Of a DNA stretch of 64,000 nucleotides, positions 32,521 through 60,554 are shown in pieces. The translations under genes and the position numbers were made by a program. Under the pieces are notes generated by a model, which was given only the letters and a program-made list of their open reading frames with translations, ran no database searches and had not been told where the DNA came from. Source of the DNA: Rhina ancylostomus. Its lineage: Eukaryota. The stretch lies in contig JARFYF010000050.1 in assembly GCA_030265395.1 (NCBI GenBank), positions 33,407,129 to 33,471,128 of the forward strand, written 5' to 3'. How positions within the stretch are numbered: the stretch's first letter is position 1; the number at the start of each line of letters is the position of its first letter.

Positions 32521-32603
32521 ATATAATGAAATCAAAGAGCAATCCAGATATCCTAAAGATGGCAGCAGCAGCAAAACGAGCAGATCGAGCTCTGAGATCA
32601 AAG
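32521..32603 (+). CDS. MPRIP: MPRIP-family internal exon (DIMKSKSNPDILKMAAAAKRADRALRSK)
   Basis: ttttttctcag|AT acceptor and AAG|gtaatc donor, 83 nt, phase 1/0. DIMKSKSNPD is MPRIP-type and is absent from TRIOBP. Confidence 0.95.
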
Positions 32604-33334
32604 GTAATCTTTCATTTCCTCAACATCTCTAATGTCAGTTTAGCCTAAAGGAAAACCACTAATTTTGAGTACTCAAGTAAATGCATTAATATTGCCATAG
32701 GTATTCAGTCAAACATCCTTTCATTTTTCAACAATACTGGTCCACAAGGCAGTTTATAATGTACATAATGCTACAAACTTATGTGCACCTCTGAAGGTTT
32801 AACCAATGCACTCAGGTACCATTATGCAGATAAGCTCTTCAGGGAGAAGAGGACATTTCTGCATCTTAATAAGTAAACCCACTATATATCACATAATGCT
32901 TAATTTCAAATCACTGGGATTGGCAGGCATATCCAAACTCCCTTTCATCTGCATTATAATCTATCTTTTTAAAATTTAATTCAATACTGATCTAAAACCA
33001 CTGGACATGTAATGGAAGGAAGCTAGTTGTTTTGTGCAGCTGCTGAAAATTTTGATATGTTCTGTTATATGATTCTTTTATCTAGGAATGAGCACATGAA
33101 AAATTATAGTTAATTCACCAGAATTGTTTCAGATCACTTGTAAGGATCATCTGTGTTATGGAAGTGTCTGACGTATTCAGAACCTTAACAACAGCCAGTA
33201 CAAATCCTAATCTGTGCACTTTTCAAGTTCAGATCAATACAGCACAGTCCTGTCCTGACTGCCCTCTGGTTTAATGTATGGAAGTAGCAAAAAGGGCATT
33301 CAATTTAGTATTTTCACTTATGATGTAAGGAATG

Positions 33335-33585
33335 GTGAAAAACATGAGTCTAGATTCCAGTCAAATGGCCTGTACAAGACATTGCATACATGTAGACATC
33401 TGGTGAGGAATGGGATTTGACTCTGATTCTCTTCACTCATCGTAAACCTGCTAGCGCAATTGGTGAGTATCAATACTCACATAAAAATGACCACTTAGAC
33501 AATGTCCTAGAGAACTACGACATCCTTGGAACCTTACCACAGGATTAGTCTTCCTCTGAGTAAAGAGGGAAGAAAATTGGGTTGT
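33335..33585 (+). mobile_element. Old elasmobranch SINE-like repeat remnant
   Basis: gacatctggtgaggaatgggatttgactctgat...ctcacataaaaatgaccacttagaca. Related fragments lie near 44090-44350 and 46140-46350. Confidence 0.35.
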
Positions 33586-34726
33586 GGTTGGATACAATGC
33601 TTTAGTCTTTCTGGTGGTACAGGCATTCACAAGAAGGCTTTTAGTTCATGCAAACATAAGAATCTTGCAGTATAAACAAATACGTAACTTGATTTAGTGC
33701 ACAATTGAAAAAGAATCTCATCTTTGGGCCCTGCATCACTGATTTGACCCAGGGGTTCATAAGTGGTGTGTCTTCACATTTTAGGGTGATCTACCAAGTC
33801 AGTTTATATCATTAATTTTTATTTTGTAAAATGCACTTATCATATTAAATTGTCCCATGCAAAGCTGATCTCTGAAACTGATAGTTGAGTTTATCTCCCA
33901 GTCCTTAAATTGTTTTGCCATTCCAGGGTAATCACAACTGTAAACAAGTATAGTTTTCATTAACTATATCCTTTGTGTTAGTTTTATGATTTATAGTAAT
34001 AGCCCAAATGTAGAGAACTTGGCATCATAAAACTAGCATCATCTTCTAAAAGGTTGTATTATTTAAAAGCTCAAGGTTTTGGCAAGATCTCCATAGAAAG
34101 AATCCTTATCTTGATAGACATTGCATCAGTGGCATCAGATCAGCAGGAGTCATGAGATAACTTGGCACTTCAAGGAGGCAATTGTAGCATTGTACTGAGA
34201 AAATCAGGGGAGCAGGTTGCCTGTCTCTTGTGTGAGGTTGTGCAACTATGCCTGGGATATGTCTTAATATATACAAACTGAAAATAATAATGAGAACTTC
34301 TTATTGGGGTCAAAGATACATCAAAGCTATTAATGACATATTTTGCCATTTTGAGGTCACTGCTAAGACTTCATTTATCTCGCCCTAGATGCCATGTGCT
34401 GTGCACTGTCGATGTTGGCCAGACCCTTATGAGATCACTGAAGAGAGAGAAAGCAAAAAGTTGATCTGTATTATTAAGCACAAAAAAAAAGTGTTTTGAG
34501 CTATTTTTAATGATGAAGGAAGAGAGTAATGCCACTCAGATCACCTTGCAGGTAGAACTAATGTAGGTTATATCTAATTAATTTACATAAACCACCCTTT
34601 AAGATATCCTGTGTACTTCTGGGTGAAATCAAGCCAGAAATCTTAGTCTAAAATCCATGGGTTAACAGTGATGCTTTGTTTTCTAACCAACCTTATTTCA
34701 TTTTGCTCCCCTTCGTCGTCCTTTAG

Positions 34727-34759
34727 TCTGTGAGTAAAGAGGTGGCATGGGACAGCTAG
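34727..34759 (+). CDS. MPRIP: MPRIP-family alternative cassette exon (whole exon 34727-34790), coding SVSKEVAWDS*
   Basis: Branch-like ttctaac at 34681, long polypyrimidine tract, ctttag|TCT acceptor, TAG at 34757-34759 and TAG|gtaaac donor after 34790. Homologous to the human MPRIP SVIEQVSWDT* exon. Confidence 0.88.
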   Translation, partial: SVSKEVAWDS

Positions 34760-35178
34760 AGCTACCTGATGATTGACATCTTCCCATTAGGTAAACCGCC
34801 AACCACTGTCAGTTATTGTCACTGAGTCAAGGCATGTCACTGTGGGAGTTGGGCTGTTTTTATATGTGGGCATCCACTGGGGTCTATTTGGATTTGTTTC
34901 TTGGTCTCTGCTTTGGCCTGTGTGAAATTAAATCTCTTATTGCTGTGTCTACAAGCAAGATGACTCCAAAATTTGAAATTTGTATATAACTTCTCTGAAT
35001 TCTGCATGACATTATCAATAAATTTTATGGTGTAGCAGTGTCCCAATAATTGAAAGTATTCAAAGGGTATAGTTCTGCAGTAGGTCATATTGGAAGAATA
35101 ATCGTGAAAATTAAGTTATTTCTGTTCTTTGATTGTCTTGATTGCAAGCTGTCCGGAACAACTGGGAGAACCCATCTT

Positions 35179-35520
35179 CATAGAATCACGCAGCACAGAA
35201 ATGGGCCCTTTGCCCTACGTGTTCACACTGATCTTCTGTACTGATTCCATTTTCCAGCATTTGACCTGTAGCCCTCTATGCATTGGCAATTCAAGTGCTC
35301 GTCTGGATATTTCTTAAGTGTTGTGAGAGAACCTACCTCCACCAACCCCTCAGGCAGTGCATTCCAGATTCCAAAAATCCTGAGAGTAAACTACCTACCC
35401 TTACCTTAAACGTGCCTTCTAATTTTGTTCATCTATGCTATGGAAAAGTTGCTATTTACCCTATTTGTGCTGCTCATGATTTTGTAGATCTCAATCAGTT
35501 CCCAGCTCAGCCATTTCCAG
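35179..35520 (-). mobile_element. CR1 LINE 3' end (reverse)
   Basis: catagaatcacgcagcacagaaatgggcccttt...cctccaccaacccctcaggcagtgcattccagattcc. Confidence 0.75.
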
Positions 35521-37582: not shown

Positions 37583-37654
37583 AGCCTCAAAGAAGGACTT
37601 ACAGTTCAGCAGAGGTTTCACCTATTTGAAAATAAGGAGACAAAAGAATTTTAA
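37583..37654 (+). CDS. MPRIP: MPRIP-family last exon, coding part SLKEGLTVQQRFHLFENKETKEF*
   Basis: ttccattcacag|AGC acceptor and TAA at 37652-37654. Homologous to human SLKEGLTVQERLKLFESRDLKKD*. Confidence 0.95.
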   Translation, partial: SLKEGLTVQQRFHLFENKETKEF

Positions 37655-39400
37655 GAGCTCCTTTGCATGTATGAGGCTGCCATTCTGCCTTTGTGTGAAT
37701 CACAGTCAAATATGACCTCTAATGGAAGCTTTGAGTTGCTCAGCAGCGATACACAAGTTGTATTTAAAAAAAACACACACAACCCGCACACACCTATTTT
37801 CCCTTGGATTATTATTGTAAAGTTATAGCATTTACTTTAAGTTCCATGCACTGCAGATGCTACAACTAATCTTATTGCAATCTCTTATTGTAAATACTAC
37901 GTAGGGATTAGCTTTGTTTCGATGTTTGGGGTTTTGTGGTCCCTCACGGTCTGTAAAGCTGATTTATATACACTGCTGTATAAGCTACTGTGTAAACAAA
38001 TGGAAAAACCTTTTTAGAAAATATGAAAGACACTACTTGTATATAACCACAAGAGAGGGATGCTTGTNNNNNNNNNNNNNNNNNNNNNNNNNNNNNNNNN
38101 NNNNNNNNNNNNNNNNNNNNNNNNNNNNNNNNNNNNNNNNNNNNNNNNNNNNNNNNNNNNNNNNNNNAAGAGAGGGATGCTTGTGTATTTTCGTTTTTCT
38201 TTATTGGACTGAAAGTTGAAGCTTGATTTGGATGTTTGAATATTTGGAGAAGGTACAAGTTTGAAGACAGTGTCCCATTTTCCCAGTCTGCAAAATACCC
38301 TCTCTTACCCACATTTCCACTCCCTTAGCAAAATAAAAACATATAGATAAAACAAATCTTATTAAAACTGTTACAACCTTCCATTTTTTTTTGTCAGCCC
38401 ATTAATGAGGATTGTATCTAAACTTTGGAACTTTTAAAACATTTTTAGATAAGAGGGGTTGGCAGTGATTTTGAAGCTTTATTCATTTTGATACTGTTAT
38501 TTGTGCCGTTTCTACAGCTGCTTGTGAGGATTCTATATCTGTACTAAAGTGACTGTAGACTGTGAAGTTTTAAAGGTGCTACCAAATTATGTCAAATGTA
38601 TAAACAACTTTTATTAATCTTTCATTGACACTAATCTATATTTGGATATTGAACTAAAAGCATAACTTATCTCACTTTTGGTCAGCACTTGTTATTTCCT
38701 TGCTCTTCTGGCACTGTTGGTCACTTCCGTGCAAAACAAGCACCCCGAGACCTGTGTTGCATTCTGAGAGTGACTCAAGTAACTTTGTCATTAAAACAGA
38801 AATTGAATGATCACCAGGGCCAGTAGAAACAAAAATGTAGCCTCGCAATTTGTGCTTAGTCATGATTTAATATTGTAGGAAATAAGTGAACAAAAAAAAG
38901 TAGAACTCTTGATGTTCACCTTTTAATAACACCAATACTTCAGAGAAGATTCCACTGCAGATGTATTTCAATGACTATAACTGATTTACAAGGTACTAAT
39001 GATATGTCGTTTAAGTAAACGACAAGTTGGAGTACCATGAAGGAGTGTGTTGTGTCGTTTTGATAGTTTCATATTTCAGTCTTACTGGCCCACCAAAGGG
39101 ATGCTGTTTCTCAAAAAAAAATTAAATCAATAAACTGTAGGATCTGGAGACCATTTTTTTTAAACCTGTATGTGCAGAATGGGTGTCATCTTGCTGTTGA
39201 GTGAGGGAGAGGGGGAATATTGGGTAGCTTTGTAGTTTCTGCCAGTGGCAGGCCCTGTATTTATTTAAATGTGCTAAATTTGCTCCCTTTTCCCTTTCCA
39301 GTCATAGAAACTGCTGTTTGTGATTGTAAATACACAGTAAATACCGCACCACCTAACTTTGCATATGTTAGCAATAAAATATTTTTGCACCACATCTGAA
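37655..39400 (+). other. 3'UTR of the MPRIP-like gene
   Basis: AT-rich and free of recognisable repeats. Pumilio-type TGTAHATA at 37889, 38038 and 39325. AATAAA at 38332, 39129 and 39373. Confidence 0.7.
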
Positions 39401-39422
39401 TGTTGTCTGTGAGTATTTGTCT
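39373..39422 (+). terminator. Probable distal polyadenylation signal of the MPRIP-like gene
   Basis: AATAAA at 39373-39378 followed by a GT-rich element (tgttgtctgtgagtatttgt). Repeat-derived sequence begins shortly after. Confidence 0.6.
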
Positions 39423-39479
39423 AGAGTACTGAATTCACTGCACTTCAAAATATAGAATGTCTACCCTCTATTGAAATGA

Positions 39480-42400
39480 TCTTTGGGGGAGATTTAGGGT
39501 CAAGTTGTGACTATGCACTTGCATCTAATCACAAATTTAAATGAAAAGGAATCGACTTACGAGTGCCTCTGCTACCGGATNNNNNNNNNNNNNNNNNNNN
39601 NNNNNNNNNNNNNNNNNNNNNNNNNNNNNNNNNNNNNNNNNNNNNNNNNNNNNNNNNNNNNNNNNNNNNNNNNNNNNNNNNNNNTAGGTAGTGTTGCCTT
39701 TGGACATCAATTTGCCGTTAGTCCTGGAATGTTGTTGGAGCAGGAATTGTAGATGTGCTCAAGAAAAGTTGGCAGGTAAAGTTTCTGCATCCAAACCTCT
39801 TGATGATGAGCCTTCTGGCAGTGAACTTGGTAGAAATGCAAGTGTAACATATTTCTGATCCATACTATTAACCATATTGCCATACAGAGTACAGAATTGC
39901 TGAAATCATCTGTTAACTTAAAATTTGTTAGTCCTTTTCAGGTATGTTGCTACCCAGTGTGGCCCTTGGTGCAAGACACTTCTGGACGAGGAAGTTCATT
40001 TGGTAAAAATGTTCATCCAGATTAACATTGTGTTGCTTCAAATGCTGCCTTGAGAACACACTCAACTCTGCTCTGGAACTTAGCACTGGTCAATATTTGG
40101 ATTGATACAGTCAATGGCTGTAATGAGCTCTGGAGCTGAGTAGTCCTGGATATCAAAGTTAGACCTTGAAGGATTTATTTGTTTGTCTCTCTGTAGACAC
40201 AGCCTGACCTGCTTAGTATTTCCAGCATTTTCTGTTCTTATTTCAAATATTCAGCATCTGCAGTACTCCAGATGTGTTTTCACTTGAGCCCTATACAGTT
40301 GTGGCAAGACAATCCCACTCTTACAAGGAGGATCAATGTTCCTAATTATTTACTGTATCGGTGCCAACTTTATGCAAACCTCTTCCTATTCGGAGGCCTG
40401 CAATAATCTTGAAACATTATAAGCCCTGTCTTTCAATCTAACCCCATCCTTAACTTTAGTTAACCCCTTTCAACTTATTCCCCAATAGTCTATGTTAAGA
40501 GTTACAAAATATTTCCTTAAGTGCCTGCCATTTATCTACTATAATACCTATTAATCTAATTTACCTATTTGTTAACTTTCCTTTAAGTTTCAGTCCCATG
40601 TTTGTCACTCAGATGCTGTTAAATTCTTTTCTGCTTTGATCATTCAATTTCAAAGAAAAGGAAATCTATTAGAATGCCAATAAATCCTGTCCTTTAGCAA
40701 TCGTATCTTAAAATAGTCTTATGAGTCTGTGACTTTGTTCTAGGAAACTTGCTCAAATATATTCCATGAACTCCTTATGTAAATCTTTGCCAGCTTGTTG
40801 TGCCCAATGAAGATTAAAGTCACCCATTGTTATTTGCATTACTCTTGCTACAACCTTGTTTACTTCTTGACCAATCCTATCCAATGGTACAATGACTGTT
40901 ATGTGAACCTATAGACTATTGCCTCCAATAATCATTGTTCGAAATAGAATTAGCTTATTTCCTCCTTTTATTATTAGAGCCAGCTTACCTCCTTTTCCAC
41001 TGTGTCTATCCTTCCAAAATGTTGGTTATCTTGGAAACTCATTTCCCAATCTCGGTCACCATGAAACACATCTCCAGTGCTCTAGTTCATACCTATTTAT
41101 CCATCCCTGTGACCTCAAATCATCCTTCCATCTTGTTATTAATGCTTCATTTGTGTAGATAAACAGCTTTTAATTTTAATCCCCCTCCTTTCTCTTCTCC
41201 TCCGCGCCCTCCTACCCCCATCCTTCCATTTTGTCCCCTTTTCCCTAAAGACACAAGCTTGCTGTCTATCCCCCTAACTGAACTCCCCTCTACCACTTTC
41301 ACATTAAGTTTTGGTTCCTCTCCTGATTGGTCTCCTGTACCATCATGTTATGGCCAGGCCCATCCTCCCTACAATCCTTGTTCATGTCCTTGTACTGGAA
41401 GAAACATACTGTCCCTTGAGGATTTCATTGAATTCCCACTTTATAGAGCTACAATAAATCATCTATCAAATCTTGACCTGTTTTCAATTAATTTAGGTTT
41501 CTATTTACTTGATATCTAATTTTTTTAATGTCTCTGCTCCTCTTACCTATCATTCAGTTTTATCTGCCATAGCTTGCATTAAGCTCTAAATGAAGTTTAA
41601 ATACTTATTGCCTTAAGCTAAAGAACTATCAGGTGAACAAAGATCAAAAAGTTGCAGATGCGGGAATTCTGAAATAAAAATGGTTAAATGATGGTACTCT
41701 CCAAAGGGGTCACCCAAACTGTCTTTGGTTTCTCTAATTTAGAGACTGCACTGTGAACACTGAATGCAGCACGTTAGATTGCAGCTCACCTGAAGGACTT
41801 TTTAGATCTTTGGATGGTGGAAAGATATGAGGAGTCGCTACTGCACATTCTGTGGTTGAATGAGAAAGTGCTTTGAGAAGGTGAGTAAATGGAGTCAGAA
41901 GAGCAGTCCCTTCCAAATGCTGGAAGGGAAGAAGATGTGTCTAGTGGTCAAATACTTGTGAAGTTTGAGGAAATTGAGAGATGATCTGTTGAATTCAAAG
42001 GCTGGGGTGGAAGACAAGGACCAGGCAAACTCTATCTATGCTTTGGCAGCGGAGACCAGAGGGCCAGGAAATGGGTGCGATATTGGATGGCAAAGGCCTA
42101 GAGGGGCATGGGTCTAATGTGGACAAATGGGATTGGTGAAGGTGGGCATCAGTCAGCTGAAAGGGCCAGTTTCTGAGCTGTATGATTCTAAGGCCTGCAC
42201 TTGGAACTTAGATTTTCAGCTTAATATGACTTTGAAGAAGGAATAGTACACTCCAGATTTAAGTTTGCTAAGAACACAAGTTAAATGGCATAATAAATAA
42301 TGTCAATGGAAATTAAATTATCCTCTATTTGTATCCTTTAAGGTTGGCAGACCCATGGCAGAGTTAAATTCAGGGAAATATGAAGTTATCCATTTTGGAA

Positions 42401-42830
42401 CTGGGATAGATGTGAGAATATTTTTTTAAATGGTGAGATGGTATGAATTTTAGAGACAGAGAGAGTCCAAATACAAATATTGCTTTAAAATTGCATCGCT
42501 CCCAAAAACAAATAGGGTTGTGGCATATTGGTCTTTAGATACAAACCAAGTATATCCTCTGGTGGAGAACTGAAGCATTAAAACAATCAATCTAAGCCTT
42601 TTAAAACTGTGTTGTCAGTAGGTACCACACAAAGTGTAGAACTCTGGCTCTTTTGTCCCTAAAAAGCTGCTACTGATGGGAGTTAACGAAGATTCAAAAC
42701 TGCAATTGCTAATCTTCCTTTCCAGCAAAAATCTATGTTTGATAAAACTAAAGTGAGTAGATGGGGTTCAAATGCAATTAGCCATGATTTAATTCAAGGG
42801 CAGATGCACATTGAAGGGCTGTATCATGTG
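39480..42830. mobile_element. Intergenic pile of eroded LINE, CR1 and Penelope-like fragments
   Basis: Penelope-like ends at about 40165-40270 and 41635-42060, a reverse CR1 endonuclease remnant at about 40500-41600, and a CR1 tail at 42080-42190 (gctgaaagggccagtttctgagctgtatgattcta). Confidence 0.6.
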
Positions 42831-44499
42831 TAGTGCAGCTTCTGGACACAGACACAAATCAAATTCCTTCAGTATCGATTATTTCCAAAACTTGTTCATC
42901 TTTATTTATGGAAAGAAATGTATAGAAATGACATGAGATACCACTCGAATTTAAGGCTGAATTTAAAAATAAAATACAACAAGCACATAAAACTCTTGCA
43001 GCCTAATTTAAAAGGTTTCATATATATATAACATATATATAAAACTCACAGTTCAGCAGAGAACCAGTGGCTGGTACAAAGAAACACCAATAATGAAAAA
43101 GCAGTAAATTGCAGCCCACAAGCCAAGCATTTTTCACCGAGCTTCTATACAACAGCTGGTTGCACCAACCTTGGGTAAAGACATTTGTCCAATTTGACAT
43201 GAACTCTGGTGTTAAGACAACAACCCCCACCAGGTGATGGAAATTAGTGCCCAAACCTTCAGAGCCCTGCCTTAAGACATGCAGCTACTTCAGTCCTTTC
43301 TGGTCGTGTGTAGCATTACTCATTTTCAGTATAGACTAATGGCTAATCAATAGAGAGGATAGTTCTTTTTCATTTGGTTTTACCCAATTCCATCCTTCAC
43401 TGTAGAAACATATCCATGTTTAGCTGGAATTAAACAATCTTGCAAAGAATCTGCCCCAAATGATAAACATGGCTGAATAATTGTAATATCAGTATCAAAT
43501 ATGCTTGCTTCATATTACATCTATTCTTGCTGCATTGATTTCTAGTCTGAGAATCAAATAGGAAAAGCTTAGTGAAAAGGCCCTGCTACCATTAAATTTG
43601 GTTAACAGCTTATTGTATATCGTAGGATGGGTCTACCAAAACTGCTATCTAGCTACAACCCTATTATGGTGTCGCTGGTTAAACACAGATTAGAAACATT
43701 TAAGACAATTTCTTAAAATAGAAATGGATCAAAACTGAGATCTGCAACTGACAACAGAAGAGTTTTTCTCATCGTGCATTGGTTAATTTCAAGCCAATTA
43801 AAATGCAGTTGCTGATCAGTCTTGGCATTGGGATTGATAGAAAATAAAGAATGCTGGATACTACAAGACAACAGTGGAATAAACTAAGCCATTTTAATTT
43901 CCTAGATATAGCCTTACAGGGCTATCCCAGTCCCTTACAGCTTACATTTTATAAATGGTCTGTTATTTGCGTAGCTACATTTCCCAGAATCCAGTGTGTA
44001 AAGGGAGAACATGACATTTCTCTCCTGGTTGGAACATTTCATTTTGATTTCACATTTCTGCAACCTATTATGGAGTAGGTAGGGTCTGAAGTATGAGAAT
44101 AAGAAGTAAAATGAGATAGCTCATGGTTGAGCAAGGGTTATCCAGTGAGAAACTGTGCTATATATACTCTTTAGCTTGTGCTGTATCATTGAACTTGGCA
44201 AGGGTTAACAATTAGTTTCCTTTGGTTTAGACAGAAGAATGATTGCCTGTATTCTTAGTCCTGATCACTGACCTGCTGAGAAATATAGAGGCTGCAATAG
44301 GCAGAGGATCAGGCTCGGGTACGATTTAGATTGGTCCCTCAAACATTTCTTCTATTGTCAATCAATCATTCAAAGCATTAAACTTGCTGCCCCTAGAAAA
44401 TGAATCATTCCTATATCTTGGGAACCATTCATTAGTGAGCCAGAACAGTGGTCATCTAAACAAAAGGTTCAAACCTCACCTAAAACTCATTGTCTTTCA

Positions 44500-45005
44500 G
44501 TTGAGACTCCTGGCCTCCTATGTGTTTTTGAGGTTTTCATTATCTACACCAAGCACTTCAAAGTGTTGGACAGCTATTACCAATGCTATCCCTGCAAAAT
44601 CCTCCAAATCCAGAGCCAGAAGTAGTAAATTAATGCCACTGTCCTCTCCCAGCTCTACTTACACCACACTGGGCAGGCTTCAACATTCACATGCCCAACA
44701 CCAGATTCCTGAAACACTATTTTCTGAGCTTTGATGTGGGAAGAGTTTATCAAGTGGGAAGATGAAAACATTCAAGGGTGTTCTTAAAACCTCCTCAAAG
44801 AAAAATGCAACATCCTCACCATCTCCTGGGATTTCTTCTCCTGTGACCTTTCACGGAGCAGAAGATGCATACTCTGAAGCACACCACCTACTGCCTTCCC
44901 TCCTGTACCACCTGTGGCAAGACCTGCAGGCACCACATTAGCCTCATCAGTTACCACACAGCAAGTGGAAGGCAGTTATCTTCATTCCCAAGACAGTGCC
45001 TAAGA
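44500..45005 (+). mobile_element. RTE-clade LINE 3' fragment
   Basis: Remnants of W-GH..RMP..RIPK.L..SEL and the terminal CTTCGKTCRHHISLISYH motif typical of RTE ORF ends. Confidence 0.65.
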
Positions 45006-46002
45006 GACAATTTACTGCACAGTAATAATAGAAACCAAGGTCAAGAAGGTGGTAACTATAAACAAAGAAATGTGACATTGATGTTTGCATAATTTAACAC
45101 ATTTTAAATGATTTTGTTTTAGATCCAGACAGAAATTTACAGTTTACCTTACAGGGAAGGAAACAATGGTGCAACTGAGACTTAACAGGTCTCTAGAGCA
45201 TAGGAAGCAGAAATAATACTACTCATGAAAATATCTGAAAGCAACAGACTGCTAGAGTGCAACATCACAGGAGAGGGTCTGGGCTCTAGCTGCCTAATAA
45301 TGCGTTTATCTATGGAATGGTTAGATAAACTGGATCACACGTGAAGGGGATGGGAAAGTGGAGAAAATGTAAAAACAGGTAATGAAAGGTGGCTTGGAAT
45401 AACATTTAGAGTCAGGGGTGTCTTGAAATAAGGTATGGGGTGGGAGCAATGTATTCGAGAAATGAAAGACTGGAACGGAGCCCTTGCAACAAATACAAAA
45501 AATTAGATTTCTTTGTTCTTGGCATTTATCCACTGCTTACTGACAATTAAATGATATCAACAAGCTTCTGTTATTCAACTCAGCTCAATACTGAGCCATC
45601 ACGGATACAAATTGTAATGAAGTTGGAGAAACAGAATTATCTTTTCAGTTGACTGGCGAAATTTAGATCCAACCTATTGGTAGCATACTTGGTCAAGAAA
45701 CCGACCGTCTCCTTGTACATTCACCTATTATGCTGCATATGTCATCGTCCAAACTTTTAGCAGAAGTAGTTCGATGATGGGTACAATTCTCTAAACTAAA
45801 CAATGCCTAATTATCCAGCTGTCTAAATGGCATATCAGCCTTCTGACATCTTACCTTTTGCTTGCTTTCCCAGCAGTGTTCCACTGATAGTGATAGTCTC
45901 CGTAACTTATCAGCCTGGTCAAAGCTACAAGTCAGCCCCATGAGCTGAGAACTGAGTCTGTTAACTTTCAACATGCCTCTTTTTGTTTCTGCAATGAGTA
46001 AT

Positions 46003-46115
46003 GCTGATGAAAGGTCATCAACCTAAAGTGTTAACTCTGTTCACAGATACTGTCTGAGCTGCTGAATATTTTCAGGATTTTCTGTTTTTATTTTACATTT
46101 CCAGTGTTCAGCTTT
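46003..46115 (+). mobile_element. Penelope-like end with a degenerate hammerhead core
   Basis: CTGATGA-AAGGTCATCAACCT-AAAG-TGTT-AACTC followed by cacagatactgtctgagctgctgaatattttcag. Confidence 0.6.
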
Positions 46116-48476
46116 TACTTCTGGGCCAATGGAACTTTAGTTCCACAGACATTACCTGCCCTCCAGTAACACGCACAAGCCTTTATAATGAACACTGTGA
46201 GCTAACTGACAAGTAAGCACAATACTGTCAGCAGTTCACATGTGCACCAGCGAATAGACAGTGATCAGGAGTGAGAACTATGATTAATTTATTTCCCCTC
46301 CGTAGCCTAGGGCCATTGTGTGTCAGACAAGTGCTTCAGCTCAGGAGAGCAAGGAATCCAATCAAAGCTTTTAATGGCTCATGTTGCAGACATACTGAGG
46401 AGAAAGATAAATTAAAATTCTGCAGCAACCAAATAATCAAAGGATTCAACAATACCTTTCTGTGCCCTTAATGTGGGGACTGTGCTTCAGGAGAGGGAAC
46501 TGAAAAAAAAGATGAGGTCGAGCTTTACACAAACAGCAGACCATTCATTGGCCTTAAAAAAGAAAATAATGTTCATTAAAATAAGACAGAAAAGCATAAA
46601 GAGTCTGCAAGACCATCAAATACTTGGCAAGAGTTGGAGATTAACTTTTAACTTTTAAAGTTTCTGTAATGTCTGTAGAGTAAGCCCAACGAGCTTAACC
46701 AGCACACTAAGGATTCCTAAAAACTGACCAATGATGATATACAGTAACTGGTTCTGTGCATCTGAATTAAGGGTTTCTGAAAAGGTAGCAAAGATAACTC
46801 TTGCAGGATGAAAAACTCTAGAGCTGGACTGTACACGTCACTGAATGATGCATAAGGAGACATGAATTTAATGGAGTTAAAAAAGTACTTAGTACGGTTA
46901 ATTTTAAAAATAAATATCTATCTATCTATATATATTTATGTGGTATTTGCACTGTTGTATCCCTCTTGTCTGGCCTTTACCTTTTATTAAACAAAAAACA
47001 GAAATTCGTTACAGTTCTCCTCTAACCCAGAATTATGAAATCTAACAAAGCCTGTGTCACAGTGCTCCTTTGGGGCTCAGCCACACTGGAGGCCTAAGGC
47101 AGATGCGCAAAACTAACTGGCAATTCATTGTATTAACTCAAGCTGGAGTGATGGCATGAGATTTTCCTTTTTTTAAGATTACTAATAGCAATTCTTAATC
47201 AGAGGTCAAGCCCACTGAGCTGTGCACAGTGCAGTGAATTGTGCGACAGTTTAGTTCAGCTGCAAAATTTGTTTTGAATGAGAAATAGGACATTTGTTCG
47301 TTTTAAAAAAAAGTAAAATAATTAACCAATGTAAAAGAACGGTAGTTTCATAAATGATTATCAAAGCCAATCGATTCCAGAAGTAGTAAAGCAATCTGGA
47401 TATGAAAACTAGGAGCAGTATACATCTCACCCTTTACAAAAGGGGAATACTTCGAGACTATCATTTACAGCAGAATTTTAAAACCACTGTAAACAAGTAA
47501 ATTTTTGTGGGGAGACGCAAGGGACAATTTTGTGTGCTTTACTATTTGAACCAATAACACTTAACTTCTGCGGCAAATGCCAAACCCATGAACTTACGTT
47601 AACGACTAATAACTTTGGAACGAGAGGAACAGAATGAGCAAATCACTTTTGACCCTGTTCATTCCATGGGTGTGAATAAGTGGTGTTTAGTTTCCTATAA
47701 ACAATTCAAAAAGATTTGAATGTGTGGCTGACATTTGGTTCTCACTTGGCTACACTGGGTCCAGCAAAATTTCCGATATATACACCCGTCTAAAGATTGG
47801 CTATTTCAGCAGGACAGTGTTACTATGCTATGTAGGTAATCAGATAGGTCCCAAAGATAATGAGGTTCTGCAGTTGGAATTAAGTGCCGTTCACTACATG
47901 CACATTTGAGGATGACACCAAAATGTACACAGAACTAATGACTAGAAACTGAACACTACTATTTTTAAGGCTGTCAATGCACAAGGAAGAACCATCTGGA
48001 TAACTGTGGTATCAAACTGCATGCCTGGATCATTTCCCATTCTCACACCTGCACAACCCAATCACTGTTAAGAATACGAGGTTTGTGTTTACCAAACACA
48101 CACAAATCTGCTGCAGCTCCTTTTGAAAAAATGTAGTGGATGTATTGAAACTTGGGTATAAAGTTTACAGACAATGCAGAAAACCGCATTGCCCCNNNNN
48201 NNNNNNNNNNNNNNNNNNNNNNNNNNNNNNNNNNNNNNNNNNNNNNNNNNNNNNNNNNNNNNNNNNNNNNNNNNNNNNNNNNNNNNNNNNNNNNNTTTAC
48301 AGACACCGCAGAACACCGCATTCCCCCACTTCAACCCTCCCCCCACCCGCCCCTTGCCCACCCCCCCAAAACCCACAACCCCATCATCACAGCCTTGTTA
48401 ACATTTGGGGGGAACTCAATCAGTTTAACATATCTTGACATATAGTCTTGGAAGTACCATGAACATTTAACTCATT

Positions 48477-48491
48477 CTACTTAACCAACAG
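48477..48491 (-). CDS. RAI1/TCF20-like probable last exon start, coding LLVK* when the 73-nt exon is skipped
   Basis: Minus-strand acceptor ctcccatgtcctttattgcag|CTGTTGGTTAAGTAG. Parallels the short tails KHK|RLP* of RAI1 and KHK|VRLWR* of TCF20. Confidence 0.55.
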   Translation of the reverse strand: MLVK

Positions 48492-49554
48492 CTGCAATAA
48501 AGGACATGGGAGACCACAGTGCTTTCTTTCAATATCTTCAGTTTGCTTTACTGTGAAGGCAACAAGTGGCAGCTGAATTTTTCTCACAAAACAGCATGTC
48601 CATCTCCAAGCAGTCTGTGAAGAACCACCTGTGGATGTGTTAATACAAAATGTTACAAGAAAAATAGTGATACCATGACAGGTTTGCTTTAACTTTACAC
48701 CTCCATTTCCATAGCACTTGTACTTCACTGATTGTAAAATGTTTTGGGACATTCTAAGTACAAGTACATGCTGTAAGCACAAGTCTTTCTTCCTGGTATG
48801 ACACATTAAGTGAATTCTTTACATACTTGTTCCTTCGGTTACACAATTACCAATATTATTCACAATCATAATTAGAATGGTCTATTACTCTTCATTAAAT
48901 GTGAGACATGTTACTGAATTTGAAATTGACTACAACTTCTTAACTCCTCAATACCACTGCCTCGCATAAGACCCATTACTATATGCAATGGATTATAAAT
49001 GTAATCACTGATTAAATATAATTACTGATCACTGACTACAATTTGGATCATAGGGCATGAATCACCAACATCTCTGCAAGACATGGTTACTTTACTTGAG
49101 CAGTAGTGTGTTGCTACATATATGAATGTGACTGATCTATTAAATTTTCATGGAAAGTGCCATCATAACTCTATATAGTTTATTTAACTGCCAAATAAAT
49201 CTAAGATTTGGTCCTGAATTATTCTCGCTTAGTGAGGTTTGACAACATTAATTGATTATTTAAGCCACAGTTATACTTCAATTGCTGAGATAGGCAGCAT
49301 CATTTTAGATTCATTACTTCACCCTTCCCACCACCACACTGTGCTGTGCATCACCCTGAAGCTGTCGAGTCAGATGCTGATCATCTCTTCGTCCACCTAG
49401 AACACCTGCTTCACTATCAGTTTCACTTTACTTTGGAACTCCAGGGAATGACCTTCTTAAGCTCCCAGTCTTTAGGCTCCCAGAAGTGGTGCAACACCGA
49501 CCATTTGGAAAATAAATTACATTCATCAGCAAAGCACAAACTGCTTAGGCTGAC

Positions 49555-51944: not shown

Positions 51945-52398
51945 TAGAACACAAGAACTCTCATTAAGTTGAATAAGTCACCAGGACCGGATGGGATGTA
52001 CCCCAGACTGCTATGGGATGCGAGGGAGGAGATTGTGGAGCCTCTGATGATGATCTTTGCATTATTGATGGAGACGGGAGAGGTTCCAGAAGATTGGAGA
52101 GTTGCGGATGTTGTACCCTTATTCAAGAAAGGGAGTAGAGATAGCCCAGGAAATTATAGACCAGTGGGTCTTACCTCAGTGGTTGGTANNNNNNNNNNNN
52201 NNNNNNNNNNNNNNNNNNNNNNNNNNNNNNNNNNNNNNNNNNNNNNNNNNNNNNNNNNNNNNNNNNNNNNNNNNNNNNNNNNNNNNNNAATAGAGGGCTA
52301 TGGGTAAGCCTAGTAATTTCTAGGGTAGGGACATGTTCGGCACAGCTTTGTGGGCTGAAGGGCCTAAATTGTGCTGTAGGATTTTTCTAGGTTTCTAT
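51945..52398 (+). mobile_element. Young 5'-truncated CR1 LINE collapsed across an assembly gap
   Basis: Intact NKSPGPDGMYPRLLWDAREEIVEPLMMIF...EVPEDWRVADVVPLFKKGSRDSPGNYRPVGLTSVVG before the gap. CR1 tail (tgtgggctgaagggcctaaattgtgctgtagg...tttcta) after it. Confidence 0.9.
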
Positions 52399-53148
52399 AA
52401 ATAGCACCATGGTTTCATAAATGTTCGCCTCGAGGCACCATAGCAATGCTGATACACAAATTTGTACGAAAGAGATTAAAAAAGGCTGCATGCTATCTTC
52501 CCAAAAGATAACATTAAAGCATACTGGCTGTATCTTTGTTCTGCACCCAGCTGCTGTTTGTATCCTCTGGCAGCACCATGGGGATAAAAAGGTCTGAGAC
52601 CCAAACAAATGCATGCACCGCCCCAGGACCGTGGCATGCTGATGTCTGTGGTTTTGCTCTAGGTTTAGGATTCATCAATCCATTCTACTGGGGGAATCTG
52701 CAGGCTTATAGGCAGGAGTCTGAGAAAGTAATAGCTTCTCTGAATGCCAATGACCAGCCACAGAAATAAACAAGCATGGGTTACAAGTACCAAGAATGGT
52801 GGAGGGGTAGGGAGGTGGGGAGCTGGAGAGTGGACTAGAACTCACTGTTTGAAAGGGTGATGGAGGTAGAACCTCTCATTACATTTAACAGGTACCTGGA
52901 AGGTACCTACAAAGAGTAATCTATGGACCACAAGCTAGGAAATGGAAGTAACCTGTATAGCTCCATTTTTTTGACCAGCGTAGACAGGATGGGCCGAACA
53001 ACTTCCTTCTGCACCATAAATGTCTATGATTTTAAGTCAGCATTGCTACTACATTGTCAAAAAAATGAAATTATAATGTGGAAATAAATTATCTGGAGAC
53101 ACACTAAATCTACTTACAGCTCAGCAAACTTGAACATCAGTATCATTG

Positions 53149-53190
53149 TCACCTGCTTTCCACCTTTGTTGAAACTTTCAGAGCTCTGTC
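53149..53190 (-). CDS. TCF20: RAI1/TCF20-like stop-containing exon (whole exon 53118-53190), coding DRALKVSTKVESR*
   Basis: Minus strand catttaccag|GAC acceptor, TGA at 53149-53151, and perfect CT|gtaagt donor 31 nt after the stop. Phase 0 fits KHK. Resembles the TCF20 tail NKTAKGSLSTEQSERG*. Confidence 0.78.
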   Translation of the reverse strand, partial: DRALKVSTKVESR

Positions 53191-53872: not shown

Positions 53873-54079
53873 TTCAAACTGGTTAGCATTACCATAACAC
53901 CTTCCTCTATCAGTAATTTGTTGGGGAGGGAGCAGGGGAGGTGGCAATGACCAGCAGCTGACCTGACCAGGAACCTACTCACTGTGACTGCAAATGCCTG
54001 TTGGATACTGCGCATGCTGCACCAAGGAACTCATTTCCCTATTTTGCAAAGCCACTCCACCACCTATGGGATGTTTCAA

Positions 54080-54645
54080 GAGATAGGATGTCATGTTACA
54101 CTTGTACAAATCGTTAGTTAGGCCGCTCTTGCAGTATTGTGTGCAGTTCTGGTCACCACACTACAGGAAGGATATGCTTACGCTAGAGAGGGTGCAGAAA
54201 AGATTCACAAGGATGTGTTCTGGATTAGAGGGCTTGAGTTATAAGGAGAGACTGGATTGACTGGGTCTGTTTTCCCTGAAGCAAAGGAGATATGATAGAG
54301 GTACATGAACTTGGAAGATAGAGATAGGGTAAATGGCCACCATGATTCCCATGGTAAGGGTGGCTACAACAAGAGGGCATAGCTTTAAGGTGAGAGGGAG
54401 GAGGTTTAAAGGGGATCTGCGGGTTAAATTTTTCACATGGAGTAGTAGGTATCTGGAATGAGCTGCCAGAGGAGGTGGTCGAGGCAGGAACACAAGCAAC
54501 ATTTAAGAGGCTACTTGAATGAGCAGGGCATAGAGGGACAAGGAATTAATGCAGCCAAAGGGGATTAGTATAGCTAGGCAAGATGGTCAGCACAGACGCG
54601 GTGGGCTGAAGGACCTGTTTCTATGCTGTACAACTCAGTGACTTA
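54080..54645 (+). mobile_element. CR1 LINE 3' end
   Basis: LYKSLVRPLLQYCVQFWSPHYRKDMLTLERVQKRFTRM motif and tail gtgggctgaaggacctgtttctatgctgtacaactc. Confidence 0.92.
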
Positions 54646-55458
54646 ATATTTTTACAGTGTCCCTCAGTGGTTGCGGTCGTGATGGTGGATGCTTATTCAC
54701 TTTCAGTGGAGGTGGCTGCAGATGGCATTTGCAAGTGGTCCTTGTCCAGCTGTGGAGTGCAGTCTTGCAATTAGCAGCAGTGACCTGGGCTAGCTGGGCT
54801 GATGGACATCAATGAAGAGACTACTGGAGTGAATGCTGTGGGAGCATGAATGCTGTTAGCCTCAGAAAGGACAGCATTTTTGCACACCACAGAAGAAGGC
54901 ATCAACCATCCTAGTAACCTGCTGGAGGGCAGATTGCTGGAGCAGTGCAGCACCTTCTGAGCCCCTTTGGACAGTGTATCCAGAGCCACAACAGCAGCAG
55001 CACAAACTTTTAAGCTGAGCTGACCTCCCACTGCAGCATCCAGATATCAACTGGTTCTGCAGATACTACAACAAGACCTGAGACATCAGACATTAGGCAC
55101 TGCACCATCATTAGATCTGCCAGTGCTGACAAGGACCTAGCCATCAATTTCAGGCTAGGAAGAATCAGGTCCAAGCTTCAGGCTCCATGCAAAGACATGT
55201 GNNNNNNNNNNNNNNNNNNNNNNNNNNNNNNNNNNNNNNNNNNNNNNNNNNNNNNNNNNNNNNNNNNNNNNNNNNNNNNNNNNNNNNNNNNNNNNNNNNN
55301 NNNNNNNNNNNNNNNNNNNNNNNNNNNNNNNNNNNNNNNNNNNNNNNNNNNNNNNNNNNNNNNNTGGGAGAGATCCACATGCCTAATGACTCACCAAGTG
55401 CAGATCTCAGCTCTAAGCTATTTTTCCATGTATCCATAAAATACTGGGATCCAAGCTG

Positions 55459-55686
55459 AGACACAAGAGATTCTGCAGATGCTGGAATCTGAAGCAAAAC
55501 ACACAAATGCTGGAGGAACTCAGCAGATCAGGCAGCATCTATAGATGGAAATAACAGTCAACATTTCGGATTCAGACCCTTCATCAGTCCTGATTTCAGG
55601 TCTCGACCCAAAACACCAACTGTTTATTTCCTTCCATAGATGCTGCCTGACCTGCTGAGTTCCTCCAGCATTCTGTGTGTGTTTCT
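55459..55686. mobile_element. 228-bp hairpin Penelope-derived element with two inverted hammerhead cores and a 15-bp target-site duplication
   Basis: Arms of about 55501-55587 and 55590-55680 are reverse complements. Flanking direct repeats are CTGGGATCCAAGCTG (55444-55458) and CTGGGATCTAAGCTG (55687-55701). Confidence 0.85.
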
Positions 55687-57057
55687 CTGGGATCTAAGCT
55701 GTGCATTTGTGTGCCTGATGGAGTATTGAGGTATCTTATTCTTGAGGTTCATTAGCCATAGACTCGGCAATTGTTGTTTACAACGGTGCAGTTAGATGAG
55801 AGAAAACAGACAGATATGAAACGTACCGATGGCTTAAACCATCAGCATGTTGTAAAACAGATATTGAAGGATGAGGAGTGGAAAGTAGGAAGGAGTATTA
55901 GATACAAGCATACCACCTTCAAGGATCGTTAATTTAGAGTGGCAGATGACCCCCAGTGAATGCAAGCATCCCATCCTGAGTAAGTCTAAACCATAGCTTC
56001 CCACCATCTGTTATCCAGGTGGCAGGTGCATGCCACCTCTTTCTGCAAAAGGGAGGGAATAGTGTTAGTGATTGTGTTGCAATGCCTCGGCCAATGGCCA
56101 TAAACCTGGAAGCGTAAACTACGAGATGCAACTAATACAAGTGCTGTAGTAATGGTCAGAGTGTACAGGACCTATTGCTATTAGAAAGAAGTGATAAATG
56201 CTTGAGACTGTAGTTAGATGACTAATGGAGCGGTAGTACATGAGACAGTGAGTGAGTGAACTTGTGGGCTATGGGATTTTGTTGATATGCTCCTGGACCT
56301 TGACCCCATGTTTGCAATCTTAGGCTTTCCCTTATAATAGAAACAGATCCCAGGACATCACATTCTCCTCTTAGTTGCATTTAACTCTAAGCTCTGTAGC
56401 TGCCTGGATGTTCAAGCAAGACAACATCTTTGTCTTTTGTCTTCCTCTTCCACCCAGAATTTCAAAGTCCAAACTGGTGAAACAGGGTATCTGCTCCCAT
56501 TTCTGTGCTGCTAATCATGCCAACAATGCTCACAAAGCTGCACAATGACTTCCAGCAGTGGGTGGTGTCAATGATTACCTTTCCTTTACGAGGTGGAGGC
56601 ACAATATTAATTAGCAGACATTAGTTTCAGCTCATGAAATAACTGATGTGTGCACAATACAAAAATGGTTATGACCAGCAACGATTAAGCTGTTGATTCC
56701 TTCACAGGATATGAACAGACAAAAATGGCATTAGAATAATTCGGTGCAGATATCCTGCACAGCGACATTTTGGCATTTATCTTCATGGATAATTCCTTGG
56801 ATGCGGTGTCCAATTTCCCACTGAATGATTACGTTTTGACCCAATAAACTAACAATTTGCATGGTGTAACCCACCCAACAGATCTCCCTAATGGACAGTA
56901 AAAAATCTTCTGTCACCAACCACTGTCACAAGAGTTATCTTTATCCTACACAATCTGTCTGGATTCAGTTGAAAGAAAAAACATATATGAAAAGCAAATA
57001 TAAAAACAAATAATGAATAACTTATGGTGAAAGATGAAGTATGTACTCATGCCATAC

Positions 57058-57107
57058 CTTATGTTTTGCACATTTCATTGAGAAATTATCTTCATTTAGG
57101 GAACATT
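57058..57107 (-). CDS. TCF20: RAI1/TCF20-like 50-nt exon ((K)CSLNEDNFSMKCAKHK), end of the extended PHD finger
   Basis: Minus strand ctctattacag|AA acceptor and AAG|gtatgg donor, phase 1/0. Matches RAI1 CIFIEENFSLKCPKHK and TCF20 CLLHEENFSVRCPKHK. Which paralog this is remains unresolved. Confidence 0.92.
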
Positions 57108-57435
57108 CTGTAATAGAGCAAATGAAGATTAACCAATATCCTTCACATCTAAAGATACATTTATACAGCAGACATCAAATCCGACACAATTAACAAAGAC
57201 TCAGAGCATAGCCTAATTGGTTGTGGACAAGAATCACTGCTCCACTACTGTGTACAATAATTCCAAGCCCTTACACTGCAAGTACAATATATATAATCTT
57301 CGTAATTTTTAAAAGTAATTTTCCAGTTTCCCACATTAATTAATTAATACCCATGAATTCAGCTAAAGCTCTTTCAAAGAGCTGACAAAGACACAACAGG
57401 CTGAGGCATCCTTTTGCACTACAAGAATCTATGTT

Positions 57436-57530
57436 TCTGATGGAGGGTCCTCAGCCTGCAACAATGACTGTTTATCTCTCCATAGATGCTGCCCAACATT
57501 CTGAATACCCGCAGTATTTTATACTTCTAT
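57436..57530 (+). mobile_element. Penelope-like end with a degenerate hammerhead core
   Basis: CTGATGG-AGGGTCCTCAGCCT-GCAA-CAAT-GACTG followed by tctctccatagatgctgccc. Confidence 0.55.
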
Positions 57531-58901
57531 TATCTAATTCTATAATCTTGAATGAACAGTAAGGGACAACTAGAATTGCTTTCCATAGCACTAAGTATTG
57601 TGTCAGAATTGCACTACAAGGAGAAGGGAATCTACATAAATGTGAGTTGTCCTTTCTGATTTAAATGACCTATCATTGTTGGTTTTAGTGCTCCCCTTAA
57701 CTTGTTATGTGATGCTCAGTGTGAGAAGACAATTAAAAGACTTTCCTCCATAAACTGCTGGCCATCGTGTGTCTCTACTGCTCATTATAACAAATGATTT
57801 TAGTGCTTTAATGAGATGTGCTGACCTGTTGTGCTTTAGCTCCTCTCTTAACAGAAGGAAAACGGCAAAAGCACCATGGTTTTTCTTAACACTAAGTCTT
57901 CAGCACATCAAGGTCAATAGCAGGATAATGGATACATCAACTAATGCATCAAATTCTGTATTGGCTGACAGCTTCCATTAACTATTCACTGGCCTACTGG
58001 GACAAGGCATAGCCTTTCGTGACAGGTCCAAGCTTTCTGATGGTGCTTTAATTGCTTTTTTCTTTGCCAGAGAAGAGAATTCCACCCTACCCCCTACCTT
58101 TGGCCTTTCTATTCTAATAATACAAACCCCCCTCTCAAAAAAGATGATCTATTTATGCTCTTAATTAAAAATATATTTTATCAGTGATGCCACTGAGATC
58201 TTAGTACAATATAAGTGTGAAATTTTCATATTTTGCTTACAACAGCCAGCTGAACAACTGCAAAATCCTGCTCCTCCAAAGCAGGACTGTGACTGATAAG
58301 AAAATTTTGAGCTAGAGAACTCTTGAGTGAAGTAATGGCTGTTCATTGCTAATGGGGAGATAAAGGAGCAGCACCACCAATTGCACAGTATGAAAATACA
58401 TTAACTCAAGTACAATTTTACTTGAAGGATATTCATTTCAATACATTAAACAAGGCAGCAATGACCCAGTACTTCTAACTAGTATTAAACACCTGAATGG
58501 ACTTTAGCAAATATTAGCTCAGCTCTGCATCACTTTCACAGTTATATCAAATTTAACCTGAACATTGTTTAAAACGATGGCATAAATTATAAACTGCCCA
58601 TTTGTTAATTTGAATTACACTAAATTCAGTTTTAATACACGTGTTTAATCTAGATTTCTGGATAATTTAAATTTGTGCAAAAAATCCTTCAAATGATCTG
58701 AATAATGTCCACTCAGATTTAATTGGGTTATTACTTTTATTGGACTGGTATAATGACTGGTATTATGTGTCCTTTTAAATGCAGAAAGCATGACCACAGT
58801 GAAGTACATTATTTGCTGAGAACATGGTTGCAAACCTGATTATGCATCAAAAAGCACTAACTTTTATCTTTATAATTAAAAATAACTGAAGAGATACTTA
58901 C

Positions 58902-58995
58902 TACTATCTACAGCACAGGCATAGTGGTACTTAAGAGGGCAGCCTTTAATGTAGCAGCCTAAAGTGGCACCAGTCTTCTGACACATGGAACAGAA
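58902..58995 (-). CDS. TCF20: RAI1/TCF20-like 94-nt exon ([31 protein letters not shown]), extended PHD zinc finger
   Basis: Minus strand tggtttctacag|TTC acceptor and A|gtaagt donor, phase 0/1. CxxC-GATLGC-xxxGC-xxxYHYxCA is the RAI1/TCF20 ePHD pattern. The large upstream exon was not found and probably lies beyond 64000. Confidence 0.93.
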
Positions 58996-60554
58996 CTGTA
59001 GAAACCAGATCACAGATCAGAAAAATATTTACAAAATAGAAACAAGGCAGGTAAACTATTATAGGGCAGCACAAGTAGATTTTGCATTTTCAGGTGTAGT
59101 ACTCTTTTGAAAGCTAATGAAGAAGTGCAGTAGAGTTTGTTTAAATGTTTGAATCATTCAACACCATATCTGATGCTTAAGTCCCTGTTCTCCCAATTAT
59201 CTTTCTAATTTTAGCTATTACTTCATCCAAATGAGAAAGTTCCAGAAAATGATGCAAGTTGTACGAATTGTTCAGCAGATGCAACTCTTTTCAAACTGCC
59301 TGCACCTCATGATGAAACGATAAATATACCGAAACACGGCCAAAGGAGAAATGCATAAGTTAGGAAAGCAATTTTGGAAAGTAAACAGTTCTGTTGAACT
59401 CTGCACAATTTATTCTTCTTTATTTGACCCTGTAATTGTCTGTGACTATCNNNNNNNNNNNNNNNNNNNNNNNNNNNNNNNNNNNNNNNNNNGGGATGCT
59501 AAGAAGAATGTGGAAATCCTGAGGTTGCTGACAGTGAATCAGGCCTAAAGTATCTATGAAATGGTCTCCCTGTAAAATACCGAAAAATATTACATTTTAT
59601 TCCATGAAAATCGAGTTTCTAACAGAGTACTAAGCCATAACTATTGCATAATAAATTCCTTGGACTTAAGATATTATTTATGTATATGCATTTCACATAA
59701 AATGTCACTATAATAGATTTAAGAATAAAGATGTTTATAATTCTGCTTCTACCTTAATTATGTGTATGTGTTCATCTTATTTAGCACTCATACATATGTA
59801 AAGTTCTCTAGAAACTCTGCTGTTTGCTTCCTGATTAGCTATCTGTTAGAATTCCTCAATGTCACTAACTGCTCAGCTTGTTTGACAGCATTCAGCTGCT
59901 ATTTGCCAAGGATAATTCTGAATCGACAGCTAACAGCATGTGAAGTTTAAAAAAAGGGAAAGTCCATGCTACTGAGATTACTAGACCTTTGTGGGCACTG
60001 TCAATAGCCACAAATTTCCGGACAGTGTTTTGTAATACTTCAGCATCACCTCACGTTGTAGCCATCCGCTATATACAACCACTCTGCCAAGACAACAATC
60101 ACCTTGTCAATCCAATGGACATGTTACATCAGGTCTTTGGGTGAGTGACATTTATTATGTGTTCAGAATATTGAAATCAATTATTTAAACCAAATTCTCA
60201 AATCACATCACAGTTTAATTTCCTTTCCATTTCCCCTCAGTTTCTCATATATTAGATGATTCTCTGATTTACATTTTGGTTGCTTAGTAAGACTTGTCTG
60301 TGAGTAACAAGATTCAGTTCTCCAATTATTAAAGCATCATGGCTCCTGTATTACTGCAAACCGACCAAGTTTGTTCTGTGAGAAGACTATCAGAGGAATA
60401 TATTTGGCAAGAACTTAATAACATTTTCTTGAAATACTAGTATCCGCAGTGAAAAATAAAGAAATCTTCAACAAGTAGGCAAGAAAAAACATTCCGCCAA
60501 GTTTAGATTTAAAGAACAAAATCCTATTCCCACCCAGCTTTGTGTTTTCAGTCA

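Follow-up and report, generated by a model that had tools for sequence, protein, structure and literature searches.

What are the two genes that converge in a 64,000-nucleotide stretch of the genome of the ray Rhina ancylostomus (the window; assembly GCA_030265395.1, contig JARFYF010000050.1, here called C50), and how did they come to be neighbours? The one on the plus strand resembles MPRIP and TRIOBP, and the one on the minus strand codes for an ePHD protein of the RAI1/TCF20 type. A first-pass annotation of this sequence had proposed that both are additional paralogues generated by whole-genome duplication and lost in mammals, and that their tail-to-tail adjacency may be ancestral. Our analyses lead to a partly different answer, to which we assign a probability of about 0.85: the window covers the 3' ends of two genes, both intact and spliced, namely a third RAI1/TCF20 clade and a third MPRIP/TRIOBP copy, which are likely leftovers of the early-vertebrate whole-genome duplications and were likely made neighbours by the loss of genes between them.

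Copies and clades of the two families

The MPRIP-type exon and the large ePHD exon each have exactly three matches in the genome, on the same three contigs (C50, C112 and C67), and the ePHD exons of the three copies agree in intron position and phase. RAI1 and MPRIP are together on C112, TCF20 and TRIOBP on C67 and the window pair on C50. The separate RAI1/MPRIP and TCF20/TRIOBP loci that the first-pass annotation had suggested looking for are thus present, and both window genes are indeed additional paralogues. T-type calcium channel genes and GGA-type genes also occur once on each of the three contigs, the C50 channel gene best matching CACNA1G. Such triplets form the pattern of whole-genome-duplication paralogons and fit the proposed origin of the pair. 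As befits ohnologues, the flanks are paralogous (two full marker triplets and one pair), and the duplication falls after the invertebrates and before the shark/bony-fish split.

The ePHD gene of C112 (42.04 Mb) is tail-to-tail with a SREBF-type bHLH gene, followed by a TOM1-type gene (42.18-42.21 Mb), and the MPRIP gene (about 42.65-42.74 Mb) is directly followed by a PLD6-type gene. PEMT is also found on C112, as is a large exon that matched the folliculin N-terminal model and that we take to be SMCR8-like. The human 17p11.2 genes listed in PMC3524443 include MPRIP, PLD6, FLCN, COPS3, RAI1, SREBF1 and TOM1L2. The gene set of C112 is the 17p11.2 set, rearranged. On C67, the TCF20-type and TRIOBP-type copies are 1.4 Mb apart, and a weak NFAM1-like exon adjoins TCF20. 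On both contigs, a TOM1-type gene (15.30-15.33 Mb on C67) separates the two families.

A maximum-likelihood tree of the ePHD proteins (34 rows, 332 columns) separates three vertebrate clades: the third clade (support 100/99), RAI1 (97/93), which holds the C112 copy, and TCF20 (100/99), which holds the C67 copy. All vertebrate rows stand together against the invertebrates (100/99). The third clade includes proteins of chimaera, sharks, ray-finned fishes, coelacanth and lungfish, and its internal order follows the species tree. The alternatives that the C50 gene is a duplicate of RAI1 or of TCF20 made within the cartilaginous fishes are rejected by approximately unbiased (AU) tests (p 7e-5 and 1e-74, respectively). 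The C50 gene therefore groups inside neither clade; the role of RAI1 orthologue is filled by the C112 copy, and the C50 protein is devoid of the conserved AT-hook of TCF20. The ePHD peptide had been described as a mix of RAI1-like and TCF20-like residues. The peptide itself is correct, but in the tree it takes an outgroup position to both families rather than that of a mosaic.

The closest named proteins to both window genes are those of Pristis pectinata, with 96-98% identity. The minus-strand gene is the orthologue of si:dkey-94l16.4, as it matches the Pristis protein of that name at 97% over the query. The same name is used in Callorhinchus, Latimeria, Astyanax, Lates and Scophthalmus, and other database entries of the third clade are misnamed TCF20, RAI1 or 'serine-rich adhesin', or are called uncharacterised. 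Teleosts carry a second third-clade copy, si:ch211-165g14.1. Nine cartilaginous-fish proteins named 'transcription factor 20' in RefSeq/UniRef fall in the RAI1 clade together with the C112 copy. We also noted a protein of 1815 residues (row P0383) with a vertebrate-type ePHD, a QVxNIP box and an AT-hook; it is ~40% identical to all three clades and weakly sister to RAI1 + TCF20 (82/77), and may represent either a jawless-fish copy or a fourth ohnologue.

The plus-strand gene belongs to the MPRIP/TRIOBP family, as indicated by the two PH domains and C-terminal coiled coil of its Pristis orthologue and by the exons mapped on C50. It is 61% identical to the C112 MPRIP (598 columns) and 43% to the C67 TRIOBP, and the 'mprip' proteins of ray-finned fishes and lungfish are 71-74% identical to the C50 copy and 58-61% to that of C112. 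The best 120 of its 1547 relatives are fish proteins, most of them named MPRIP and three with the symbol mprip. Among these 120, the motif NPDIL is strictly matched in 102, the others ending early or reading NPDIV, and the form NPDFL is found in none. The C50 copy reads NPDILK and the C112 copy NPDFLKKD; NPDFL is the form that the first-pass annotation quotes for human. No mention of the human motif SNPDFLK was found in the literature. Instead of the PLD6-FLCN-COPS3-RAI1 synteny of MPRIP, the neighbours of the C50 copy are the ePHD gene, FDXR, CACNA1G and a leucine-rich-repeat gene; the copy with the human-MPRIP neighbours PLD6, RAI1, SREBF1 and TOM1L2 is that of C112. Given this, and the presence of the third ePHD gene beside the fish 'mprip', the latter is likely a mislabelled paralogue of MPRIP. 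Judging from the naming in other teleosts, zebrafish mprip would also be this paralogue.

Origin of the pair and competing explanations

Several observations weigh against the overall reading given above. The folliculin C-terminal model matched an unplaced contig and the N-terminal model only the SMCR8-like exon, and PEMT is 11 Mb from RAI1 on C112, which is why we call this contig rearranged relative to human. The order of the duplications is unsettled, with RAI1 + TCF20 at just 80/71 and a grouping of the third clade with RAI1 retained at p 0.13. The MPRIP tree has an unresolved base, long C112 and C67 branches and no tetrapod MPRIP or TRIOBP rows, and the AU test keeps a grouping of C112 with the bony-fish 'mprip' rows (p 0.20); the paralogue assignment of the plus-strand gene thus rests on motif and synteny. 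Finally, the matches are the best 120 of 329 for the ePHD query and the best 120 of 1547 for the MPRIP-like query, and tetrapod members could rank lower, above all for the latter.

This last point bears on the most resilient of the alternatives, that some tetrapods still have one of the genes or both, the loss being later or patchy. The lowest of the best 120 of 1547 MPRIP-like matches scores 143 bits, against 150 for coelacanth and 158 for lungfish, so that a tetrapod copy might rank right after it, and short tetrapod ePHD proteins fall outside the 1062-3380 residues covered by the lungfish query. Nevertheless, the tetrapod proteins among all 113 matches of that query belong to RAI1 and TCF20 only, and the 150 best representatives of 50%-identity clusters, of any length and reaching the invertebrate outgroups, contain no third-clade row outside fishes. 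Both sets are included in a FastTree of 348 rows, from which 8 rows without the anchor motif had been removed beforehand. Its third clade comprises 195 rows: the ray-finned-fish group has 177, and the other 18 are proteins of cartilaginous fishes, lungfish and coelacanth. Tetrapods account for none of the 195, their proteins being confined to RAI1 or TCF20. We therefore regard tetrapod survival as unlikely, and the absence of tetrapod rows among the third-clade relatives sampled makes loss of the ePHD gene on the tetrapod stem likely. The first-pass annotation was right that the ePHD gene is missing from mammals, but it appears to be missing from all sampled tetrapods and was likely not lost in mammals alone. 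Teleosts, for their part, doubled the gene again.

The adjacency of the two genes is shared widely. They have consecutive accessions in lungfish (XP_043924068/069) and consecutive locus tags in Prochilodus, and chimaera, gar and bichir each have both on one scaffold. Single fused gene models with the MPRIP-like part first are found in Scortum and two goodeids (three percomorph models, two lineages), which implies a head-to-tail order on one strand in percomorphs. Since they are adjacent in ray, lungfish, Prochilodus and percomorphs, their neighbourhood is as old as the jawed vertebrates, i.e. it predates the shark/bony-fish split. This would suit the idea that direct adjacency was the state before duplication, which survived on C50 and was disrupted where RAI1 and TCF20 lie, and if the RAI1 and TCF20 regions are sisters, which the tree supports weakly, the two separated loci would count as one event. 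However, the TOM1-type gene between the families on both C112 and C67 argues for linkage without adjacency as the most likely state before duplication, and gene loss is the commoner process after genome doubling. Furthermore, the head-to-tail order in the three fused models differs from the tail-to-tail order in the window, so one lineage must have inverted a gene, and as far as these models go the tail-to-tail orientation is not general. An ancestral tail-to-tail adjacency, as first proposed, is thus not supported, and we consider ancestral adjacency in any orientation improbable, somewhat more so than survival in tetrapods; the genes more likely became neighbours on C50 through gene loss.

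In a Polypterus gene model (P0512), the ePHD gene is joined to an EF-hand-like protein that lies downstream, which implies that the 3' neighbour of the ePHD gene in that model is not the MPRIP-like gene. The EF-hand-like protein has no match in the C50 stretches examined.

An extra pair could also stem from a segmental duplication, local and early in the jawed vertebrates, and only two marker families were examined as full triplets, with the branching order unsettled. We find this very improbable, as the marker triplets are spread across megabases of the same three contigs and the duplication is dated between the invertebrate deuterostomes and the chimaera/shark split. Least probable of all is true orthology between the plus-strand gene and human MPRIP, with the C112 copy as the extra one, a reading compatible with the MPRIP tree and with the RefSeq/UniRef names of most of the best 120 of 1547 matches, but at odds with the NPDFL form, present in the C112 copy and in none of those 120, with the PLD6, RAI1, SREBF1 and TOM1L2 company of the C112 copy, and with the C50 neighbours FDXR and CACNA1G, which we take to be genes of human 17q.

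Exons, transcripts and neighbouring sequences

The exons of both genes are listed in the table. The transcript contigs come from four runs of one study on one related organism, whose RNA status was guessed; one run was flagged 'probably DNA', yet it has the same splice joints, and such contigs do not prove transcript ends or strand. With that proviso, the plus-strand exons are linked through GT-AG introns in contigs of all four probable RNA runs, and an alternative exon with an early stop is spliced in three of them. In this gene, the long exon of 1241 codons is followed by the small coiled-coil exons that are typical of MPRIP-family genes, including the one whose peptide the first-pass annotation had quoted and correctly placed at 32521-32603 (+). 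The contigs terminate at 39385-39393, shortly 3' of an AATAAA signal.

The two ePHD exons of the minus-strand gene also lie where they had been annotated (58995-58902 and 57107-57058), and splicing them gives the peptide quoted for this domain. A contig of 4249 nt bridges the non-coding last exon (from 48628) and the exon 58995-58902, with 125 nt in between, the combined size of two small exons of the ePHD gene. The contigs of its 3' untranslated region (UTR) stop at 42895-42957, where the minus strand has an AATAAA. The first coding exon, a large one, is 10-14 kb past the window (C50, about 33481646-33485320). Contig ends and polyadenylation signals on both strands thus place the convergent 3' ends ~3.5 kb apart, as the first-pass annotation had it, and the stop codons are 15.5 kb apart. 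Among the open reading frames (ORFs) of at least 55 residues, judged by eye, no other coding gene is evident between the two genes. The ORF at 44330-44731 was considered as an intervening gene and rejected, because it falls within the 3' UTR and stops interrupt the opposite strand.

Table. Features of the window on C50 (positions counted from the first nucleotide of the window)
Feature	Position	Strand	Basis
MPRIP-like long alternative coiled-coil exon, 1241 codons, open; skipped in the Pristis isoform of 1117 residues	5551..9273	+	Within ORF 5491-9399; AG/GT boundaries read from sequence
MPRIP-like coiled-coil exon, end approximate	14644..14791	+	Sequence comparison
MPRIP-like coiled-coil exon, both bounds approximate	18988..19104	+	Sequence comparison
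MPRIP-like coiled-coil exon, start approximate	21496..21654	+	Sequence comparison
MPRIP-like exon	26417..26530	+	Splice joint, 4/4 runs
MPRIP-like exon	27239..27325	+	Splice joints
MPRIP-like exon	31373..31535	+	Splice joints
MPRIP-like exon with clade-diagnostic NPDILK motif	32521..32603	+	Sequence and splice joints
Alternative exon, early stop giving a shorter C-terminus; homologous exon in the C112 MPRIP copy	34727..34790	+	Joints in 3/4 runs; translation
MPRIP-like last exon: 23 codons, stop 37652-37654, 3' UTR with AATAAA 39373-39378	37583..39393	+	Contigs
Spacer between convergent 3' ends, ~3.5 kb	39394..42894	.	Contig ends
ePHD gene, non-coding last exon, 5.7 kb 3' UTR, AATAAA 42906-42901	42895..48628	-	Contigs
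ePHD gene, last coding exon, stop 53151-53149, 31 nt ahead of the final junction	53118..53190	-	Sequence; size fits contig gap
ePHD gene, exon for the end of the atypical PHD finger	57058..57107	-	Sequence
ePHD gene, PHD finger exon; large first coding exon beyond window	58902..58995	-	Sequence and contig

The C112 MPRIP has a decayed counterpart of the long coiled-coil exon (about 42717250-42723960), with short matches, a frame change, stops and a longest frame of 124 codons. As the exon is open over its full length on C50, it is possible that isoforms are divided between the paralogues in this ray.

Outside the pair, FDXR is head-to-head with the ePHD gene and is followed by CACNA1G (L005:3576-3773 (+), L009-L010 and L057-L060 (-)). 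A leucine-rich-repeat gene is head-to-head upstream of the MPRIP-like gene, and next comes an exon that we presume to be U2AF2-like (L067-L070 (-), L094 (+)). The genome search gave no match for the NT5C family. The introns of the window contain retroelement fragments, presumably of the CR1/L2 type, and high-copy short repeats (259-1212, 51948-52304, 27700-28000 and 55450-55700). On C67, a protocadherin-like exon within the TRIOBP region (L037:8916-9998) adjoins assembly gaps and may reflect a misjoin.

Anatomy, predicted role and known relatives

The ePHD protein is ~1280 residues long. By the family criterion of PMC3799622, for which the value is 120 residues here against 130 in the C112 copy and 136 in the C67 copy, it belongs with RAI1 and TCF20. 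The marker tryptophans of the ePHD are present, two before ligand 3 and three after ligand 4, as is the atypical Cys4-His-Cys2-His PHD; PF13771 scores above its cut-off in the Pristis orthologue. With profiles derived from RAI1/TCF20, the E box of the nucleosome-binding region is found in 18/18 third-clade rows, for which binding is only predicted, and the LPPR..LE.IVQ (LEAIV) box in 14/18. In contrast to this C-terminal conservation, the third clade does not have the ~1900 residues and Q-rich N-terminal activation region of its relatives: Gln makes up 8% of the first 250 residues versus 13-19% in RAI1/TCF20, and none of the 18 rows matches the QVxNIP, ICDxS or extreme N-terminal profiles. The AT-hook (KKGRP/KRGRP) is present in 12/12 TCF20 rows and 0/18 of the third clade. 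The latter has an N-terminal motif of its own (core TTVTxSY, about residue 85-105), found in 15/18 of its rows but in 0/24 RAI1/TCF20 and 0/16 invertebrate rows; it is kept from chimaera to lungfish and teleosts and is lost in three teleost second copies. The C67 row lacked boxes in the profile scan because of a frame artefact, and its motifs were present in a separate motif check. The PDB contains no RAI1/TCF20 ePHD structure and no chain of MPRIP/TRIOBP or RAI1/TCF20, and the ESM Atlas yielded family names only, with no useful taxa.

In mammals, the RAI1 ePHD binds the PZP domain of PHF14, and it is through their C-termini that TCF20 and RAI1 cross-link to PHF14-HMG20A; the two are described as possibly mutually exclusive subunits with prion-like N-termini (bioRxiv 10.1101/2021.10.12.462922). 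By analogy, the third ePHD protein would most likely be an alternative, exchangeable subunit of PHF14-HMG20A, since its C-terminal long-loop ePHD, E box and LPPR..LE.IVQ box are retained. It would dock through this C-terminus and bring a different N-terminus, without the same activation or condensate-promoting part, given that the Q-rich/prion-like N-terminal half and the AT-hook are missing and that it has its own motif near residue 90. The MPRIP type of protein links myosin phosphatase and RhoA to F-actin, and its paralogue is predicted to do the same.

A more ambitious scenario, which we put forward as tentative and rather doubtful, is that this short third subunit occupies the RAI1/TCF20 slot of PHF14-HMG20A with a docking motif of its own, so that it competes with or buffers RAI1 and TCF20; that land vertebrates, having lost it and its MPRIP-like neighbour on the tetrapod stem, were left with two dosage-sensitive genes; and that work on fish 'mprip' concerns a gene absent from humans. 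In zebrafish models of the Smith-Magenis and TCF20 syndromes, rai1 or tcf20 mutants could be buffered by the third clade, which has two further copies in teleosts, and the short protein of this clade is a natural truncation that tests the role of the N-terminal half. The likely mislabelled fish 'mprip' and the shark RAI1 proteins named TCF20 represent hidden paralogy that affects inferences across species. The retention of ohnologues in fishes and their loss in tetrapods is common, and the pattern itself is unsurprising.

Both window genes are new members of known families. They are already catalogued in databases (si:dkey-94l16.4 and 'mprip') but were not found in print: a search that left subscription journals and gene-tree databases outside its scope returned no description of a third RAI1/TCF20 paralogue or of either zebrafish gene. 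The published RAI1/TCF20 tree, for which sequences were chosen partly by size, has two vertebrate clusters only (PMC3799622, in the part available), and a choice by size would have excluded the shorter third-clade gene.

Compared with RAI1 and TCF20 (SPBP), the third-clade protein shares the long-loop ePHD/ADD with two marker tryptophans, the atypical PHD, the E box and the LPPR..LE.IVQ box (PMC3799622), and its gene has the same organization, in which the small ePHD exons come after a single huge coding exon, with identical intron positions. It differs in its length (700-1300 residues in most members, 1931 in lungfish, versus about 1900), in its N-terminal half and in forming a separate clade. 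No difference separates it from si:dkey-94l16.4, whose teleost duplicate is si:ch211-165g14.1. As for the plus-strand gene, it shares its domains with MPRIP (p116Rip/M-RIP) and TRIOBP, and its exon chain, down to the alternative stop exon, with the C112 MPRIP; it differs from them in its closeness to fish 'mprip', its NPDILK motif and its neighbours.

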